Shown here: positions 23,744-34,787 of the stretch, one piece after another
How positions within the stretch are numbered: the first letter of the stretch is position 1
How the letters are laid out: each line of letters starts with the position of its first letter
Source of the DNA: Basidiobolus ranarum
Taxonomy: Eukaryota
NCBI GenBank assembly: GCA_040143965.1
Contig: JASJQH010000025.1
Location: forward strand, 1-45,842
DNA: 45,842 nucleotides
Direction: 5' to 3'
Made by a program: the position numbers and the translations under genes
Notes under the pieces: model-generated
Database searches by the model: none
The model's input: only the letters and a program-made list of their open reading frames with translations
Told to the model about the DNA's origin: nothing

Positions 23744-24668
23744 TTGTAGGTGAACTGACACCAAAGGTAAGTAATATTAACGGGGTTCTTTAATAATTAG
23801 CGTGGTGAATGACCTATAAGGAGAGATAAAAAAAGAAAGGAGTATTCAAGGGCATAGTACTGTCGTAAACTGGTCTTGGGCTTATCAGGTGGCTATTAAA
23901 GGCAGGTAGAGTCAATTGAAGGAGGATTCATAAGGTATAACGTAGTCCAATTTCCAAGTATTGATTTCCCCATATTTTTAAATCAAATCCAACATCCTCT
24001 TCCCTCTAAATATTATCCATTTGGTAACACGCAACCCTTTTGATGGCAAGGTCCAGCTTAAAAATGGACTGTTAATCAGAAATGGCCCAAGCTCGCATGA
24101 ATTGAGCCAATTGCTAAGGATCTTCGCAAACAATAATCAATATCCGCGCAAGTCCCCTAGGGTCAAATAAGTATACGATTGGAAGCAAAAGCTCACGTAC
24201 ATCAAGTAATTTCCACGCATGGTCATTATAATGGGCTACGAAAGATCTCATCCATCTGGGGATGCTTTGAAATTCTCCTTCTGAAAGCCGATCAGATCAG
24301 GTGCAGTGAGTTGTGAAGTTTGGAGGTGTTGGCATTACTTAGTTGATATTCAGACATTCAGAAAGGTTTAGTGCAAAGAAGAGAGGCACGTAAGAGTGAA
24401 ATATACGTAGCGTCTTATACCAAGTGGTGACTGTGTCATTTCATGTATCTTTCCACGTTTAAAAAGTCATTTAACGCACAAGGATGCTCACAAGACAATC
24501 GACAAGTTCACGTACATTTTATTATGACATATGCGATGTCAGTCAAATCTCCGAAAAGTAACCTTCTTTATGCTAAAAATCCATCAAGAACTATAAATAC
24601 AAGATCCTTGTTGATCAGTTTCATACTTGCCTCATAGAACTCTCTACCCACCATCACCCTTGCCAACT

Positions 24669-25679
24669 ATGAAAAACATTGGACATTCCATCTTCCCGAA
24701 TGCAAATTACACCACTAAAGGCATGAAAAATACTCCATTGGTAGGAGGTAATGGTGCCCCGTTCCAGACACTGCGCGAAGATGTTGGATTTAACCTGTTC
24801 CCTTTGTCATACAACTTGGATACCCATTTCCTTCCATCCGAAAATTCAATTTACCCCATGTCTCCACCATTCCCAACCACAGCTACGCTCCAAAACCCAT
24901 ATCAGGCCAATGAAGAGGCTTATGAAGCCAGTTCGGATTCAAGTGAGCTGTTTCATCCAACAGAGGTGCGGGAGAAGAGTCCCCCACAGCCAAAGATCCC
25001 CAGACCAGCCAACTGTTTTTTTTTATTTCGTAAAGACAAACAAGCGGAAATCTTCGCCACCAATCCTGGGATCACCAACATGGAGGTATCTAGGATCATC
25101 GGTAAAATGTGGAAGAATATCTCAGTTGAGGAGAAAAGAAGATACCAATGGATGGCTGAGAAAATCAAACTTGATCATCAGGCCAAGTATCCCGACTATA
25201 AATACACTCCCAATAGATCTAAGAATAAACGCAAGAAGTCACCACAAGCAGGAAACGAGTGGGAGACGTGCTCTGAAGATTCAAGAGAGAATCCGCTGAA
25301 GCGACCAAATCATGATGACAATCTGGGATACGCTGGTCGTAAGCCACATGATTATCTCATTAATTCGGATATCTTATCAATATATCCAATATCCAGCGAC
25401 AACCATGGGCTGAGCAACAATCCACTGAATGCGTCTTCGTACGCTTCCTCTAATTACAACTCAGCCAGCGTGGAGTTGCCTTCCATAGATCGTTCCAAGT
25501 ATTTTCCTGGTACCGGTGATAGAAATCTGTACTCGTACTCAAACAATAATGGTTTGATGTACCCCGATGCCGTCCATTACCAGAATACTTCCCACATCGA
25601 GCCTTCTTCTTCCAATGTCTCTGGCCAGACTGGGTTCGATTTCAAATGGTTGCTTGGTGACGGTTGGTTGGAGAATTAG
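24669..25679 (+). CDS. MATA/SOX-class HMG-box transcription factor, intronless
   Basis: KIPRPANCFFLFRKDKQAEIFATNPGITNMEVSRIIGKMWKNISVEEKRRYQWMAEKIKLDHQAKYPDYKYTP followed by a basic tail. First ATG at 24669. Confidence 0.93.
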   Translation: MKNIGHSIFPNANYTTKGMKNTPLVGGNGAPFQTLREDVGFNLFPLSYNLDTHFLPSENSIYPMSPPFPTTATLQNPYQANEEAYEASSDSSELFHPTEVREKSPPQPKIPRPANCFFLFRKDKQAEIFATNPGITNMEVSRIIGKMWKNISVEEKRRYQWMAEKIKLDHQAKYPDYKYTPNRSKNKRKKSPQAGNEWETCSEDSRENPLKRPNHDDNLGYAGRKPHDYLINSDILSIYPISSDNHGLSNNPLNASSYASSNYNSASVELPSIDRSKYFPGTGDRNLYSYSNNNGLMYPDAVHYQNTSHIEPSSSNVSGQTGFDFKWLLGDGWLEN

Positions 25680-25934: not shown

Positions 25935-28117
25935 CTATTCTCGAGATATGTAGGTGGTTATAGTGGAGTTTGCTGACATATCTTGTGAATTGGGTTTCCT
26001 TAATTGGGGAATGCCTCCTAGGTTATCTTGGTAGTGCTGACCAATTCTTTGCTCCCAATGTCGGTTACGGTCCCATTCAAGAATGCGGATGCTCCAGGAG
26101 ATGGAATACCAAGTGTCTTTAAGCTCTTGTATTTTCTGTTTTAACAATACTATAACTCGATCCTTAGTCATAGCCCCGGGACGTCCATCATTAAGCTTGA
26201 GCTGTTTGACTGAAGATAGGACGCCTTTTTTGGCATCGTTCAGATGGTTCAAATAGTTTAGCATAGATCGACGGTAGGCCTCGTAGCTAGGATTGTACAT
26301 GTGATGGTGCAGGGCCTCAAAATGTTTGAATGAATACATGGTTAGTCTGGGGTGATGAGCATAACTTTCCATAATGTTGTTGTTTTCCAATAATCGCATA
26401 GGCTTCACAATGAAAATTATTCGAGAGGTTTCTGGATAAAAGGGAGGACGTTTGGAAATAGTTGGAGAGTTGGGCATTAAAGGCTCTCTGGGTAACTGGA
26501 GTTCAATAGTCTCAACATCGTATAAATCTTTCAAGCTAAGTTGAAGCCTGGTCATTTGTTGGAGTTTGATAAATCCCTGAAGGAAATGCAGGCGAAATTG
26601 TGCAATTTGAGTCAGATTTTTGGAGTTTTGTAAAGTGTATTGAATATCGTCAATGAAGCTTGGATCGATAACTTCTTCTCGTGAAGATAGAATGGCTTCC
26701 CATTCGTCCTTTCTTAATGTCGAATCATCTCTAACCTTAACCATCGGGGTCATATGCTTACGATCCTTTGGAATCAGAACATTTAGTCCCGAAGGAACTG
26801 CTTGTAAATGAATCAAACTAATGTACAACCCTGGCGAAGGTCGACTGTATCTTGCGTTGAGGAGGGTCCAAGCTTGGGAGAACACAGTACAGCATGAGGA
26901 GTAAACCTCAATATCTAAAGATTCAATAGAGCGCCACTTTAATGTCCCGTTCTTGATACTTTCAGTGGCAATCAAAGGAAGCGAGTCGTCAGTAACATAT
27001 TGTAAGGACATGAGCATCTTGGATGAGAGTTGAGAAATATCCAATGGGTGTTCGTACAGCAGTCCGAGCTTTGGAAGAGGAGTGATCTTCATCAGACTAT
27101 TAGCTGCATCACAGAAGGCCAATCTCAAGTCAACATCATGGCCTGGAATACGAGATTGCTTATGAAGTAATGGGTTGTAGGTTTCAGAGGTATTCGAGTT
27201 TTCCCAATCCATGGACGCTTTTAGAATCCACATAAATTCGTCACTTTTTTCGTTGAACTCCACCTCCCCTGTAACTGAGGAAAACGAATCGGTGACCGAA
27301 ACAGTAGGTAACAATCCGTTACCAGTCTGCAAGACTTTATGATCGCTACGAAACACTAAGGTTGATAAAAAAAGTGAATCCCGGCGAAGCTTGGTTCTTA
27401 GTGAAGTGTAAGATCTTCCAAATAGGTTGGTGAAGGAGTTATGTTTAGGTGGCAAGGATTTCATGACGTCTTCGGGATTTCTGGATAGGATAGGCTGGAT
27501 TTGTGTGAGTTACATTTGATTTAGCACCATCAATAGTTATTAGATTTACCAATTTTGAAGCCATTAATTCGAAATAGTCTGGCTTTTTACTGAGCAGAAG
27601 AAGTGACTTCTAAGAAATAACATTAGCTAGTTAATTCTCTTTGCATTATTACTACACCGTCTTACCCTGGTTTCGGGAGGGTAGGACTCGATGGAGTAAG
27701 CATCATTCAGCCAGCTATTGAGAGTTTGGCAGTAGCTGTGGTACAAGGAGAATGTTAGTAGTGGCTTAGCTTAGAGGCATGATTAAACGTACATTGCATA
27801 ATTCCACTCGTCCCAGTACTCGAAGTTTTCACAGCACTGTAAGTATAAATATTAATAGCTATTTATTCCAAAATTTAGCATTGGTTAGACTAACCAACTC
27901 GACGGCCTTTCTAATAACTGTCCCTTGAGGAATCTTTAGGTGAACGACTTTGGCTCGGGTTAAATCTCTGACACTGATGGTAACATTTGGGGAGCTGTTC
28001 AACGAACGTTAATTCGCAATCTAGATAATCTCTTGTAAGAGGAGTATCGAATTAGCATAACACATACTTGGAATCATCGAAGGTGGCACCATTCGAGGGG
28101 TTGTTATAGGTGTTCAT
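25935..28117 (-). CDS. ANKFN1/WAKE-like protein with an N-terminal ubiquitin-like (FERM-F0-like) domain (5 introns)
   Basis: Five short 5' exons splice in frame into the 509-aa ORF. Blocks LFLSTLVFRSDHKVLQTGNGLLPTVSV, EFMWILKASMDWE, PGLYISLIHL, VKVRDDSTLRKDEWE, LYDVETIEL, FEALHHHMY and WYSISWSIRILEWDR resemble the recalled ANKFN1 core. The gene itself is well supported; the family call is from memory. Confidence 0.7.
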
Positions 28118-30797: not shown

Positions 30798-32025
30798 TTA
30801 ATTCTTGAAGAGAAGAACGTCTCCCTCATCCTCGACATAACGGCACTTGGTCCAGCTGTTCCAAACAGCGCTCACAAGTGGTCTATTGTCGAACGAGTAA
30901 TAGTCACCAAGGACCTTCTTGATAGCTTCAGTGGCTTCTTCGGCGTGGTAATGTGGCATTTGTGAGAAGAGATGGTGAGCAATGTGGGTATCAGCAATAT
31001 GATGGAACGCAGTGTTGAGAATGAATCCGTAATCACGATCTATGGTAGCTAAAGCTCCACGAACGAAGTTCCATTCGTTATTACGATAGTGGGGGAGTTG
31101 AGGATCGGTATGCTGCAAGTATGTTATTAATACCAACCAAAAGTTTACCCAGAGATAAGGAATCAAGTAGAATTTCACAACAGCCATGGATCCGTAGACT
31201 TGAGATGCACCGATTAAAGCACCTATGGTTGCAAAAATACCAGCAACAGAAGCAATAATCTCCCATTTGTCTTTAGCATCAAAGATGGGTGACCAATGAT
31301 GGAAATGGGATGTCCATCTTCCATAATCTTGTCCAGAGGCATTCCAGAGAAGGTATGCAGGCCAACCAAAAGTCAACATAATGAAAATCCATCCCAAATC
31401 AACCAAAGGTGCAGCCATGATAGCTGAATCTTCATGGTCCTCGTCGTCATCCTTTTTAGGAGCCAAACCCATCTCGCTACGAGTTGATGGAACAAACACT
31501 TGATCTCTGGTCATATGTCCAGTTGCCTTGTGATGCTTAGAGTGACTAATTCTCCATGAATGATAAGGAACAAGTAGAGCAGTATGAAGAACAAAGCCAA
31601 CGGTATTGTTGATGGTCCTGGAAGGAGAGAAGGCTTGGTGTCCGCTAATAAATGGAAAGATGGTTACTTATCTGCTGAAAGTAACTTAACAATAGGAATG
31701 AAATTACGAACCATTCATGAGCGAGGACCCATACACCGGTACTGACAATACCTTGAAGGAACCAATACACAGGCCAGGCAACATAACGAAGAGTGATTGG
31801 AAGAGAATCGATAAAGGTAGCTGCGTAGAACAATGCTGCAATCAAGGACAAGTCCACAACCACGTAAACGAAGGATCTTAGAGTATCTCGTTCAAAACAG
31901 TGAGCTGGAACAGCATCACGTAACTCTTTGATAGTGAAGTTGGGCGGTATGAATGACTTGGGAGCAGACTTCTCTGACTTGCCATCGGTGTTCACTCTCT
32001 GCCTGAGGCCGGTATCTTTAACCAT
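30798..32025 (-). CDS. FAD2: Delta-12 (omega-6) fatty acid desaturase, 1 intron (31711-31645)
   Basis: PNFTIKELRDAVPAHCFER; three His boxes HECGH (across the intron), HSKHH and HIAHH; TYLQHTDP; GALATIDR. Delta-15 or bifunctional activity cannot be excluded from sequence. Confidence 0.88.
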
Positions 32026-32808
32026 TTCAGCGTGTGGGGTGAAGGAATTCGGGATGATGAATCGACAATAAAGAGGTCTCCGCATCCTATTAATATATGC
32101 AAACTTGTGAAAAAAAGTTGGGTGAAGCAATGCCCTATTGGGACATTTGAAAGCCGCAATTAGACATATATCAATTCAATAGAAGGAGTGATTGGGGTGT
32201 AGGTCAAGGCCTAGCTGATTCACCAAATGATCGCATGTTTAGATTCGTATCTTACACATATTCGGAGCAACCGGAAGACCATGAAACTAATGAAACTCCA
32301 GCTTCAACAGATTAGAGCTACACACCAGCAAGAAGCTGAGGTGTCTAGACATAGAACTGAACAGCCTGCATAGAGTGGTCACAGAGCATTTGCATACGCT
32401 GCATGTTCAGATAAGTGAAAGTGGAATATCGAAAGGTTCAGCCAATGTCTAATAGACAAGTGGAAGAATCCAAAATTGGAATACTTGAGTTTCTTAGCCG
32501 AACAGGGCATGGATTTGATTGAATATCGGTAAACGTGTGAGAAATCACTTGACACACTACACTAGGATATATATATGTGGATGTATCAATCTAATCTAAA
32601 TGAAGCTCATAATAAAACATACTTCGCAACCATGTTTTGCTGCTCTATACCAATCATCGACGATAGTACATTTAGTTCAGTTATCTAATCTCGCCGCGTA
32701 GTGCATTTGCTTCAGATATACTAGGGTTAGGGTTAAGGGGACAACATGGAAATATGACGGAATACTTTATTCTAGGATTAATATACAGGTCAGTCTACAT
32801 CTGAACCT

Positions 32809-33446: not shown

Positions 33447-34787
33447 TCAATAATCTTTTTCTCCTTTAACTTCATGCCACTGAAGCTTGGGAAGTTGGAT
33501 ATCAGGTAGAAGTAATACACGGTCGATCACGTGAATTACTCCATTTTCAACAATTCCATCTGCCAATATGACTCGTGCTTGACGATTGATAGTAATATCA
33601 ATGTTATCCTTATAATCAGTGACGATACGAAGTACAAGCTTCTCTCCACGAATCCATGATGGATAATCAATGCTATAGACATCAAAGTCCTCGAAATCTT
33701 CGTAGTCAGAATGTTTCTTGTTATGACGGCCTGTTACTTCGATGTCCTCGCTTTCTTGAGCGCGTTGCTTTCCATTGTCACGTCTATAACGTGACTCGTT
33801 ACCGTTATTGGTATCTGGGTTTCCTCTGCGGTTAGGCAAACGTTCCTCCAAGTCATTGTCACGAGGGATACTATTCTGAGCCACCCTTCCGTCTGCTGGG
33901 AGTTTCAAATCACCAGCGTAAATAAGTTCAGGCGATATGTGACTGAGTAAGATATCACGAAGATCCTCTCGTCCGTTAGAAGAAAACAAGTAATCCAAAG
34001 CAGTGCGTCCTAAACTCTTGAAAGCAAAGTTACTAGGAACGAAAACTGTCAATCCAGGTTCCTTGAATTCTTTCTCAAGTCCGGATTTTTTCAACGCCTT
34101 GAGGAAGATAGAGAATTGAGAAAACTCCTCCAATTGCTTTGGAATACTTTTTGGAAGCTCAAGGACTTGTTTGATGATGTGGACGATACCATTTCTAGCC
34201 TCAATGTTAGCTTCGCTTACTTTGGTTCCGTAATTTAAGTAGAGATGACCCCCTTTACGCTCAATCAAGACACGCTGGGGCTCATTAAATAGCTCAGGGG
34301 TGATATAGTTAGTGGCCAATACGTCGCTCTTCCTGATGTCTTCTTCATCAACGATATCTGAAATGATATGGTAATCGAGAATCTTTTGAAGTTTTTCACG
34401 AGAGACGTTGTGATGCTTGTTAAATGCTTCAAACGCCTTGTCAGTGGGAGCAAAGATAGTCACCTATAATCCAAATTATCCCATCAATAGACGTAACAAA
34501 GCTATATTTCAATGGGTGGTACTAACCTGATTACGTGGATCACTGAGGTCATTCTGAAAATTGCTGTTTGATGAGGAGAGCGATTTCAAAAGCTCTGAAA
34601 AGCGACCGTCACGGTCCAAAATCTCCAATACAGTATTGGATTTTCCGTAATTCCGGGTTTCCTTGACTTCATCTTCCTCGCTGCTCTTCTCCACTGAATC
34701 TGTTGGAGTGGAGATAGTAGCGTTCTTCTCCTCTTCTTCATGCTCTTTAGTCCCAGAAAAATCAAAGAAAGAACGAGCCGTGGACAT
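33447..34787 (-). CDS. Fasciclin (FAS1) domain protein; 5' end uncertain
   Basis: H1 motifs TIFAPTDKAF and TVFVPSNFAF, YHII, and H2 motifs NGIVHIIKQVL and NGVIHVIDRVL. An intron at ~34526-34464 joins the upstream exon. Confidence 0.88.

Follow-up and report, generated by a model that had tools for sequence, protein, structure and literature searches.

We analysed a 45,842-nucleotide stretch of the Basidiobolus ranarum genome (contig JASJQH010000025.1, hereafter the window), in which a spliced gene on the minus strand at 25935..28117 encodes a homologue of the conserved core of the animal ANKFN1/WAKE proteins. The annotated product K7432_001199 (P0002, 627 aa, 72.6 kDa, "hypothetical protein") is the exact translation of this gene. 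Scripted trials of splice sites yielded a single GT..AG combination of exons that reproduces P0002 letter for letter, with six exons from ATG to stop and five short introns of 73, 58, 57, 56 and 55 nt. Exon 6 (25935..27494, stop codon included) corresponds to a 524-codon open frame (25935-27509) with short open pieces upstream, and encodes a linker and the whole core. Exon 1 (28068..28117) covers residues 1-17, ending after the first two bases of codon 17, and encodes an N-terminal tail of low model confidence (predicted local distance difference test score, pLDDT, below 50 for residues 1-15). Exon 2 (27895..27994) encodes strands 1 and 2 and the helix of a beta-grasp domain in the AlphaFold2 model, and is followed by exon 3 (27793..27836), exon 4 (27666..27735) and exon 5 (27550..27609). 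A first-pass annotation made from the letters alone had given the same coordinates, strand, spliced structure and length of about 627 residues. A tblastn search of the window for a second copy returned this gene alone.

The features of the protein, all on the minus strand, fall into two parts. An N-terminal ubiquitin-like (beta-grasp) domain spans residues about 17-105 (27559..28069), with introns 1-4 inside the span. The ANKFN1-type core, residues 123-588 (26055..27452) as delimited by hhalign, runs colinear with the three "non-motif" domains located after FN3 in the ANKFN1/WAKE proteins. Its first block, residues about 145-324 (26847..27386), is a Nudix-like alpha/beta sandwich in the model and lacks a Nudix box. 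The peptide GLYISLIH, residues 330-337 (26808..26831), forms a buried beta-strand and is, by alignment and model, the counterpart of GLYLGYLK in ANKFN1 domain 2. The core closes with a pair of long helices (552-573 and 575-599; residues 552-599, 26022..26165) holding a W..W..DR.R block that is seen in both model and alignments, and P0002 ends 39 residues past its core. P0002 is a soluble protein: no segment reaches transmembrane hydrophobicity, the highest 19-residue Kyte-Doolittle mean being 1.45, on the GLY strand.

We searched 1.84 billion representative proteins with the last exon using phmmer and obtained 73 matches at E<=1e-3, of which 29 reached <=1e-10 and 15 reached <=1e-30. A Pfam scan of 34 of these matches (E<=1e-4) assigned no family to 33 and fn3 to the remaining one, P0044. 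A second scan of 32 matches at E<=0.01, three of them shared with the first, found Ank, fn3 and/or RA in 16, with RA in 8 of the 32; the domain order in those 16 proteins is Ank, fn3, matched region, RA, the arrangement given for ANKFN1 in PMC9210315. The best phmmer matches bearing such domains were P0044 (E 7.4e-9) and P0047 (E 1.4e-8). P0056 illustrates the layout, with fn3 at 218-302, the core at 373-668 and RA at 922-1009, and BLASTP aligned it to P0002 over 339 columns (E 1e-14), placing GLYISLIH on GLYLGYLK and LYDVETIEL on MYDVEVIEL. Profile comparison extended the match to the full region: hhalign of 10 Basidiobolus proteins against 16 Ank/fn3/RA proteins gave 99.7% probability and E 3.8e-27 over 395 columns, pairing P0002 123-588 with P0056 367-789. 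This is the entire stretch between fn3 and RA, so that all three conserved non-motif domains of the ANKFN1 group are present and colinear in P0002. The match is far beyond chance, and on sequence grounds it confirms that P0002 is homologous to the post-FN3 core of ANKFN1/WAKE/Banderuola/Nmf9, as the first-pass annotation had proposed; a significant profile match was the very thing whose absence it had named as fatal to its proposal.

The eight conserved blocks named in that annotation are all present, in the same order as in the Ank-FN3 proteins. We compared them in 19 displayed rows of a 55-sequence alignment, from which the longest and shortest relatives were left out, together with an Ank-FN3 consensus. 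From N- to C-terminus, HKVLQTGNGLLPTV in P0002 aligns with RVLVT..LPIVEV, EFMWILKASMDW with DFxWLxKVSCTW, PGLYISLIHLQ with GLYLGYLKLQ, VKVRDDSTLRKDEWE with KIRDNPNVSxEEW, LYDVETIEL with LYDxEVIEL, FEALHHHMYNP with FEMxHxxTYQP and TWYSISW..DRNR with WKxxRW..ARDK. Identity between P0002 and the Ank-FN3 proteins in this alignment was 17-22%. No Pfam model covers the core, either in P0002 and nine paralogues or in the Ank-FN3 proteins scanned. A sequence search of the PDB with P0002 alone gave 0 matches, and the 55-sequence profile returned 4 irrelevant rows with a best E of 0.57. One apparent relative, P0060 (1252 aa; phmmer E 4.6e-6), was rejected, as it matched only through 11-14 short repeats aligning to residues about 251-299, and was left out of the alignments and the tree. 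P0060 is repetitive, has a Pfam match to an "integron cassette protein" and is probably a false positive.

P0002 departs from the animal proteins in what surrounds the core. The ANKFN1 orthology group is defined by its ANK and FN3 motifs together with three further conserved domains of the non-motif kind (PMC9210315). Pfam found no Ank, fn3 or RA in the last exon at E<=1 or in P0002 and nine paralogues at E<=0.1, and none of these, nor FERM or ubiquitin, in the N-terminal 117 residues of P0002 at E<=10. Thus the two ankyrin repeats and the FN3 domain before the core that mark the ANKFN1 group, and the C-terminal RA domain of its ancestral form, are all missing by Pfam from P0002, in line with the earlier statement that ankyrin and FN3 domains are absent. 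Instead, the AlphaFold2 model places a ubiquitin-like beta-grasp at the N-terminus, where the same annotation had guessed a FERM-F0/RA-kind fold. A Foldseek search with the full model matched the beta-grasp only, and the top rows of the fold searches for this domain included SHANK3 SPN and RA domains. ESM Atlas offered only low-score leads, FERM_f0 (0.76) and PI3K_p85B (0.75), and nothing usable for P0019. The predicted domain resembles RA, FERM-F0/F1 and SHANK3-SPN domains in fold, a likeness common also to ubiquitin and SUMO-like proteins, which score equally well, but it belongs to no Pfam beta-grasp family. Judging from the model, the N-terminus of P0002 is therefore a beta-grasp domain of a kind that fold search leaves undecided, lying outside every described sequence family.

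This arrangement recurs across the family. We built a hidden Markov model (HMM) of the Basidiobolus N-terminal domain (residues 17-105) and searched a set of 86 collected proteins at E<=0.01. It matched 10 of the 12 Basidiobolus gene models and 15 representatives from outside the genus (P0012, P0014, P0016, P0017, P0018, P0019, P0021, P0022, P0024, P0025, P0026, P0027, P0028, P0032 and P0034), nearly always at the extreme N-terminus with the core following. Beta-grasp plus core is thus a conserved layout and not a peculiarity of this gene, and the conservation of the domain lends indirect support to the 5' exons that encode it being genuine.

Several relatives carry the core in other settings. 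P0018 (2423 aa), P0026 (2277 aa), P0021 (1844 aa) and P0025 (1407 aa) hold beta-grasp and core within their first 800-900 residues, followed by 500 to 1,600 extra residues with no Pfam family at E<=1e-4. In P0052 (839 aa) and P0076 (494 aa) the N-terminus is an MHYT domain, a membrane sensor (Pfam E 9.4e-28 and 2.4e-16), joined to an ANKFN1-type core, which our local core HMM recognized at E 2.7e-38 and 6.3e-19 (two sequences searched); both keep the LPS/T, F..MLK.S.SW, LYVGLLH and FE.LH blocks. An "MHYT domain signaling protein" is annotated in Aspergillus fumigatus (PMC3576715, appendix). If P0052 and P0076 are relatives of that protein, the core would be widespread in moulds.

We next consider the family within Basidiobolus. 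Seven gene models belong to B. ranarum (P0002, P0004, P0007, P0008, P0009, P0011 and P0084) and five to B. meristosporus (P0003, P0005, P0006, P0010 and P0083), all of them named "hypothetical". A word-index homologue search returned 10 proteins, all from Basidiobolus, and with a 17-sequence profile it returned 11 Basidiobolus proteins and 2 Colias butterfly proteins; this index missed members of its own 17-sequence profile, and a query with P0012 returned P0012 alone. P0007 and P0009 are encoded by K7432_003366 and 003367 on the same 29,891-base contig, and P0008 and P0084 by K7432_008513 and 008515 on the same 13,579-base contig; these neighbouring locus tags suggest tandem duplication in B. 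ranarum.

A tree was built from the first two blocks of the core (64 rows, 308 columns, quick IQ-TREE search, unrooted). It omits 22 of the 86 collected proteins, namely P0001, P0084 and all those whose match failed to reach from profile position <=30 to >=250. A single branch, with a Shimodaira-Hasegawa-like approximate likelihood ratio test (SH-aLRT) support of 95, splits 26 rows from 38. The 26-row side holds all 18 Ank-FN3 rows (16 labelled from Pfam, the two Colias proteins from length and position) and 8 unlabelled rows. The 38-row side holds 11 Basidiobolus rows, 14 beta-grasp plus core proteins and 13 others, so that every Basidiobolus row lies opposite every Ank-FN3 row. Basidiobolus forms one group (support 99) of six sub-lineages, five of which contain both B. 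ranarum and B. meristosporus, indicating duplications older than the split of these species. By sequence, the Basidiobolus family comprises at least six paralogue lineages.

The GLY peptide follows the same division. Among the scanned and matched proteins of the Ank-FN3 side, it ends in K or R in 24 of 26, mostly as GLYLGYLK, GLYLGYVK or close variants. On the 38-row side the signature is GLY[LVI][GAS][LV][FLY][HY], and the matched members mostly end in H or Y. P0002 carries a variant of the latter, GLYISLIH, which keeps the GLY triad and differs from GLYLGYLK at five of eight positions. P0006 and P0084 of Basidiobolus carry GLYVGLYY, identical to the octapeptide of Mortierella. A further 11-residue motif of the published M. 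verticillata sequence, FAWMFKTTLDW, also occurs in P0016, P0022 and P0037, and the published N-terminus resembles, by eye, the second half of the beta-grasp in P0016, P0022 and P0028. The sub-clade of P0016, P0022, P0028 and P0037 is thus probably Mortierella-like. In the manually curated M. verticillata model (PMC9210315, supplement file 1), the first residues differ, after which the sequence runs parallel, by eye, to P0016, P0022 and P0028 from "..KHGGWIHD..". The published model probably starts inside the beta-grasp, in which case the fungal N-terminal domain would have been missed in print.

Fungal relatives of the core had been reported before. Zhang 2015 (PMC4488434) describes a core-only copy in Mortierella verticillata, then the single fungus known, and suggests horizontal transfer; Ross 2021 (PMC9210315) kept out of its alignment the distant homologues that it names from M. 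verticillata, from Hesseltinella vesiculosa (Mucorales) and from Trypanosoma cruzi. Supplement file 8 of the latter lists T. cruzi XP_819238.1 (GFYVGFFL), M. verticillata (GLYVGLYY, no SMART motifs) and H. vesiculosa ORX58682.1. The available supplement text of Zhang 2015 makes no mention of Mortierella, the available supplements of Ross 2021 do not contain Basidiobolus, and our literature search found no paper linking Basidiobolus with wide awake. The view in the first-pass annotation that the family is not known from yeasts or moulds was consequently too strong, given the printed Mortierella and Hesseltinella entries, and the T. cruzi entry means that the opisthokont-limited origin it proposed is not established. 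Its claim of a novel architecture holds in part: the layout of beta-grasp plus core is new, but it is shared by the 15 representatives outside Basidiobolus, and core-only relatives had already been listed. The opposite outcome, a family widespread and already annotated in fungi, was not found, with no Pfam model on the core and all named Basidiobolus members called "hypothetical protein".

Set beside these known systems, P0002 shares with ANKFN1/WAKE/Banderuola/Nmf9 of animals and unicellular holozoans the whole colinear post-FN3 region, keeping the GLY strand and the K[IV]RD..EW, LYD.E.IEL, FE..H..Y and W..W..R blocks. It differs in having an N-terminal beta-grasp in place of ankyrin repeats, FN3 and C-terminal RA, in carrying GLYISLIH where they carry GLYLGYLK, and in lying on a separate tree branch. 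The family is multi-copy in Basidiobolus, whereas ANKFN1 is reported as one copy per genome outside vertebrates (PMC9210315). Nothing obvious in fungi corresponds to the animal roles in sleep timing, in the segregation of Numb and in vestibular function. The animal proteins act at membranes and at the cell cortex: Banderuola, which Numb segregation requires, binds Discs large (PMC9210315), and WAKE alters the membrane levels of the GABA-A receptor Rdl (PMC9076693). The core-only entries of Ross 2021 are of the same kind as P0002, a core without Ank, FN3 or RA, and the Mortierella-like representatives fall in the same tree clade as Basidiobolus. Those entries were set aside as possible transfers or poor aligners, with no N-terminal domain noted in the accessible text (PMC9210315); compared by motif and eye, Basidiobolus adds another fungal lineage, with at least six paralogue lineages.

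The core itself yielded a structural lead. Fold-search lists for the first block were filled by Nudix-type proteins, among them the non-enzymatic Nudix folds of AraR, NrtR and the MutY C-terminal domain, with match strengths in the grey zone; Foldseek with the core model gave no row at E<=0.001. We treat a Nudix-like first block as a lead that is rather more probable than otherwise on the predicted model. The Nudix box has the consensus GX5EX7REUXEEXGU. The would-be Nudix-box helix reads EFMWILKASMDWE in P0002 and DFxWLxKVSCTWDD in the Ank-FN3 proteins, without the REx2EE glutamates, and Pfam NUDIX has no match in the last exon at E<=1, so the first block, if the fold is real, would be of the non-catalytic kind. 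Compared with the MutY/MUTYH C-terminal domain, NrtR, AraR and hydrolases such as RppH, the P0002 block is larger (about 180 residues with extra helices, against 130-160) and has neither the Nudix box nor sequence similarity, the structural match remaining in the grey zone. Downstream, for residues about 325-600, the model gives the GLY hairpin and the K[IV]RD strand along with helices, another small sheet and a hairpin of long helices; G330, L331 and Y332 are each at least 90% conserved among the 55 sequences, on a strand at 330-341. A G-to-A change in the GLY strand is reported to destroy function in the mouse (PMC9210315). Our literature search found no paper linking ANKFN1 with Nudix, and the matches were, by title, expression or tracing datasets.

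We consider it very probable that P0002 is a soluble protein combining a beta-grasp with a complete post-FN3 ANKFN1 core, and that it is not an ANKFN1 orthologue but a member of a separate fungal-type branch of the same superfamily, expanded in Basidiobolus and including the Mortierella-like proteins, with an adaptor as the best guess at its role. By sequence, this branch is without Ank, FN3 and RA, usually has an N-terminal beta-grasp and has its own GLY signature. How the protein works we infer by analogy. As an adaptor, P0002 would use its beta-grasp to dock onto a partner at the cell cortex, leaving the work itself to the conserved core. The first block of the core would be a Nudix fold that has lost catalysis, binding a nucleotide-like ligand or a macromolecule as in MutY, NrtR and AraR; the second would be built round the buried GLY strand, and the predicted end is the helical hairpin. 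An activated Ras/Rap/Rho-type GTPase would be the obvious candidate partner, given that this core is joined to CRIB or RA elsewhere: choanoflagellates and filastereans have CRIB at the N-terminus of the core protein, and invertebrates have RA at its C-terminus (PMC4488434, PMC9210315). GTPase-dependent recruitment through the beta-grasp is accordingly a first guess, which we hold with low confidence, since an N-terminal beta-grasp of the RA/SPN/F0 kind fits this pattern of CRIB and RA.

Several points weigh against this interpretation. Exons 1-5 are predicted, resting on splice sites and the match to the annotation. The tree was quick and unrooted, contains several flagged long branches and does not resolve the deep order within the 38-row side. 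The term "fungal-type branch" draws on Basidiobolus and a motif-level link to Mortierella. In the fold searches for the beta-grasp, ubiquitin, SUMO-like, FERM, RA and PI3K-ABD domains were tied within 1 Z unit, so the fold class does not single out GTPase binding; likewise, the N-terminus of P0002 shows no RA sequence signal, either by Pfam at E<=10 or by hhalign to the RA part of the Ank-FN3 profile, which gave no alignment. Finally, residues about 325-600 found no convincing fold match in a comparison with known folds that was barely made.

The most substantial alternative concerns the N-terminal domain, which might be a ubiquitin-like interaction or packing domain, binding for instance ubiquitin receptors or its own core, with no link to small GTPases. 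We regard this as a serious possibility, short of an even chance, and at least as likely as the GTPase role. Speaking for the GTPase are the SHANK3 SPN and RA domains among the top rows and, by analogy, the joining of the same core to CRIB or RA elsewhere (PMC4488434, PMC9210315), with RA in 8 of the 32 relatives scanned. Doubts about the core take two forms. The Nudix-type proteins that fill the fold-search lists could mean that the first block is an active Nudix hydrolase and P0002 an enzyme and not an adaptor; this we judge exceedingly improbable, since Pfam NUDIX is absent at E<=1, the helix EFMWILKASMDWE lacks REx2EE and the best non-enzymatic Nudix folds stand in the same lists. Conversely, the resemblance could reflect a common alpha/beta sandwich and nothing further, leaving the core without a meaningful relative among solved structures, a reading we think rather unlikely while taking it more seriously than the enzyme.

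A different challenge to the adaptor on a separate fungal-type branch is that the gene came recently, by horizontal transfer, from an animal, a choanoflagellate, a filasterean or, in short, some holozoan, in which case the fungal copies would be silent on any old origin. Transfer was proposed for the Mortierella copy when it was the sole fungus known (PMC4488434), the named fungal matches are limited to one genus, and the distribution looks patchy, with no match traced to a yeast or another dikaryon. Nonetheless, Basidiobolus sits in the 38-row clade, separated at support 95 from all 18 Ank-FN3 rows, with its own signature and its own N-terminal domain; it shares no more than 17-22% identity with the Ank-FN3 proteins, its six paralogue lineages are older than the divergence of the two Basidiobolus species, and two further early-diverging fungal lineages appear in Ross 2021 supplement file 8 (PMC9210315). 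We therefore consider a recent transfer highly unlikely; an old one may have occurred.

A bolder and decidedly tentative extension of the fungal-type branch reading is that the WAKE/ANKFN1 core is an old eukaryotic module predating animals and perhaps opisthokonts, with a dead, Nudix-type ligand-binding first block. It would have been wired repeatedly to heads that target membranes or GTPases: choanoflagellates would have added CRIB, animals RA, early-diverging fungi a new beta-grasp family and other organisms MHYT. The fungal copies would then be vertical survivors, and the animal protein would be a scaffold derived from a unit that senses nucleotides or metabolites, a picture we think possible but doubtful.

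ANKFN1/WAKE/Banderuola have strong genetic phenotypes in sleep timing, asymmetric division and vestibular function, and we know of no activity assigned to their conserved core. The simple fungal form would mark an ancient unit of beta-grasp plus core, about 600 residues long, soluble and multi-copy, and such small proteins suit expression, structure determination and ligand screening. The Basidiobolus family also weakens the horizontal-transfer account of the lone Mortierella copy. A Nudix-like first block, if true, would provide the first concrete biochemical hypothesis for the core, namely that it binds the end of a nucleic acid or a ligand of the nucleotide-diphosphate type. Core-only fungal and T. 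cruzi relatives were already known from PMC4488434 and PMC9210315; new here are the Basidiobolus family expansion, the conserved layout of beta-grasp plus core, the family split, the MHYT-fused forms and the Nudix-like lead, and these additions make the function of the core more testable.

The neighbouring genes in the window contain nothing pointing to a functional link with the P0002 gene. A plus-strand HMG-box gene at 24615-25679 (HMG_box E 2.5e-22) is convergent with it, their ends lying 256 bases apart. Genes of this type mark sex loci in zygomycete-type fungi. On the other flank, both on the minus strand, are a fatty-acid desaturase at 30801-32175, divided between two open frames (FA_desaturase E 7.3e-21; DUF3474 E 1.9e-7), and a gene with a fasciclin domain at 33450-34463 (E 1.2e-39), neither of which is a usual sex-locus neighbour.

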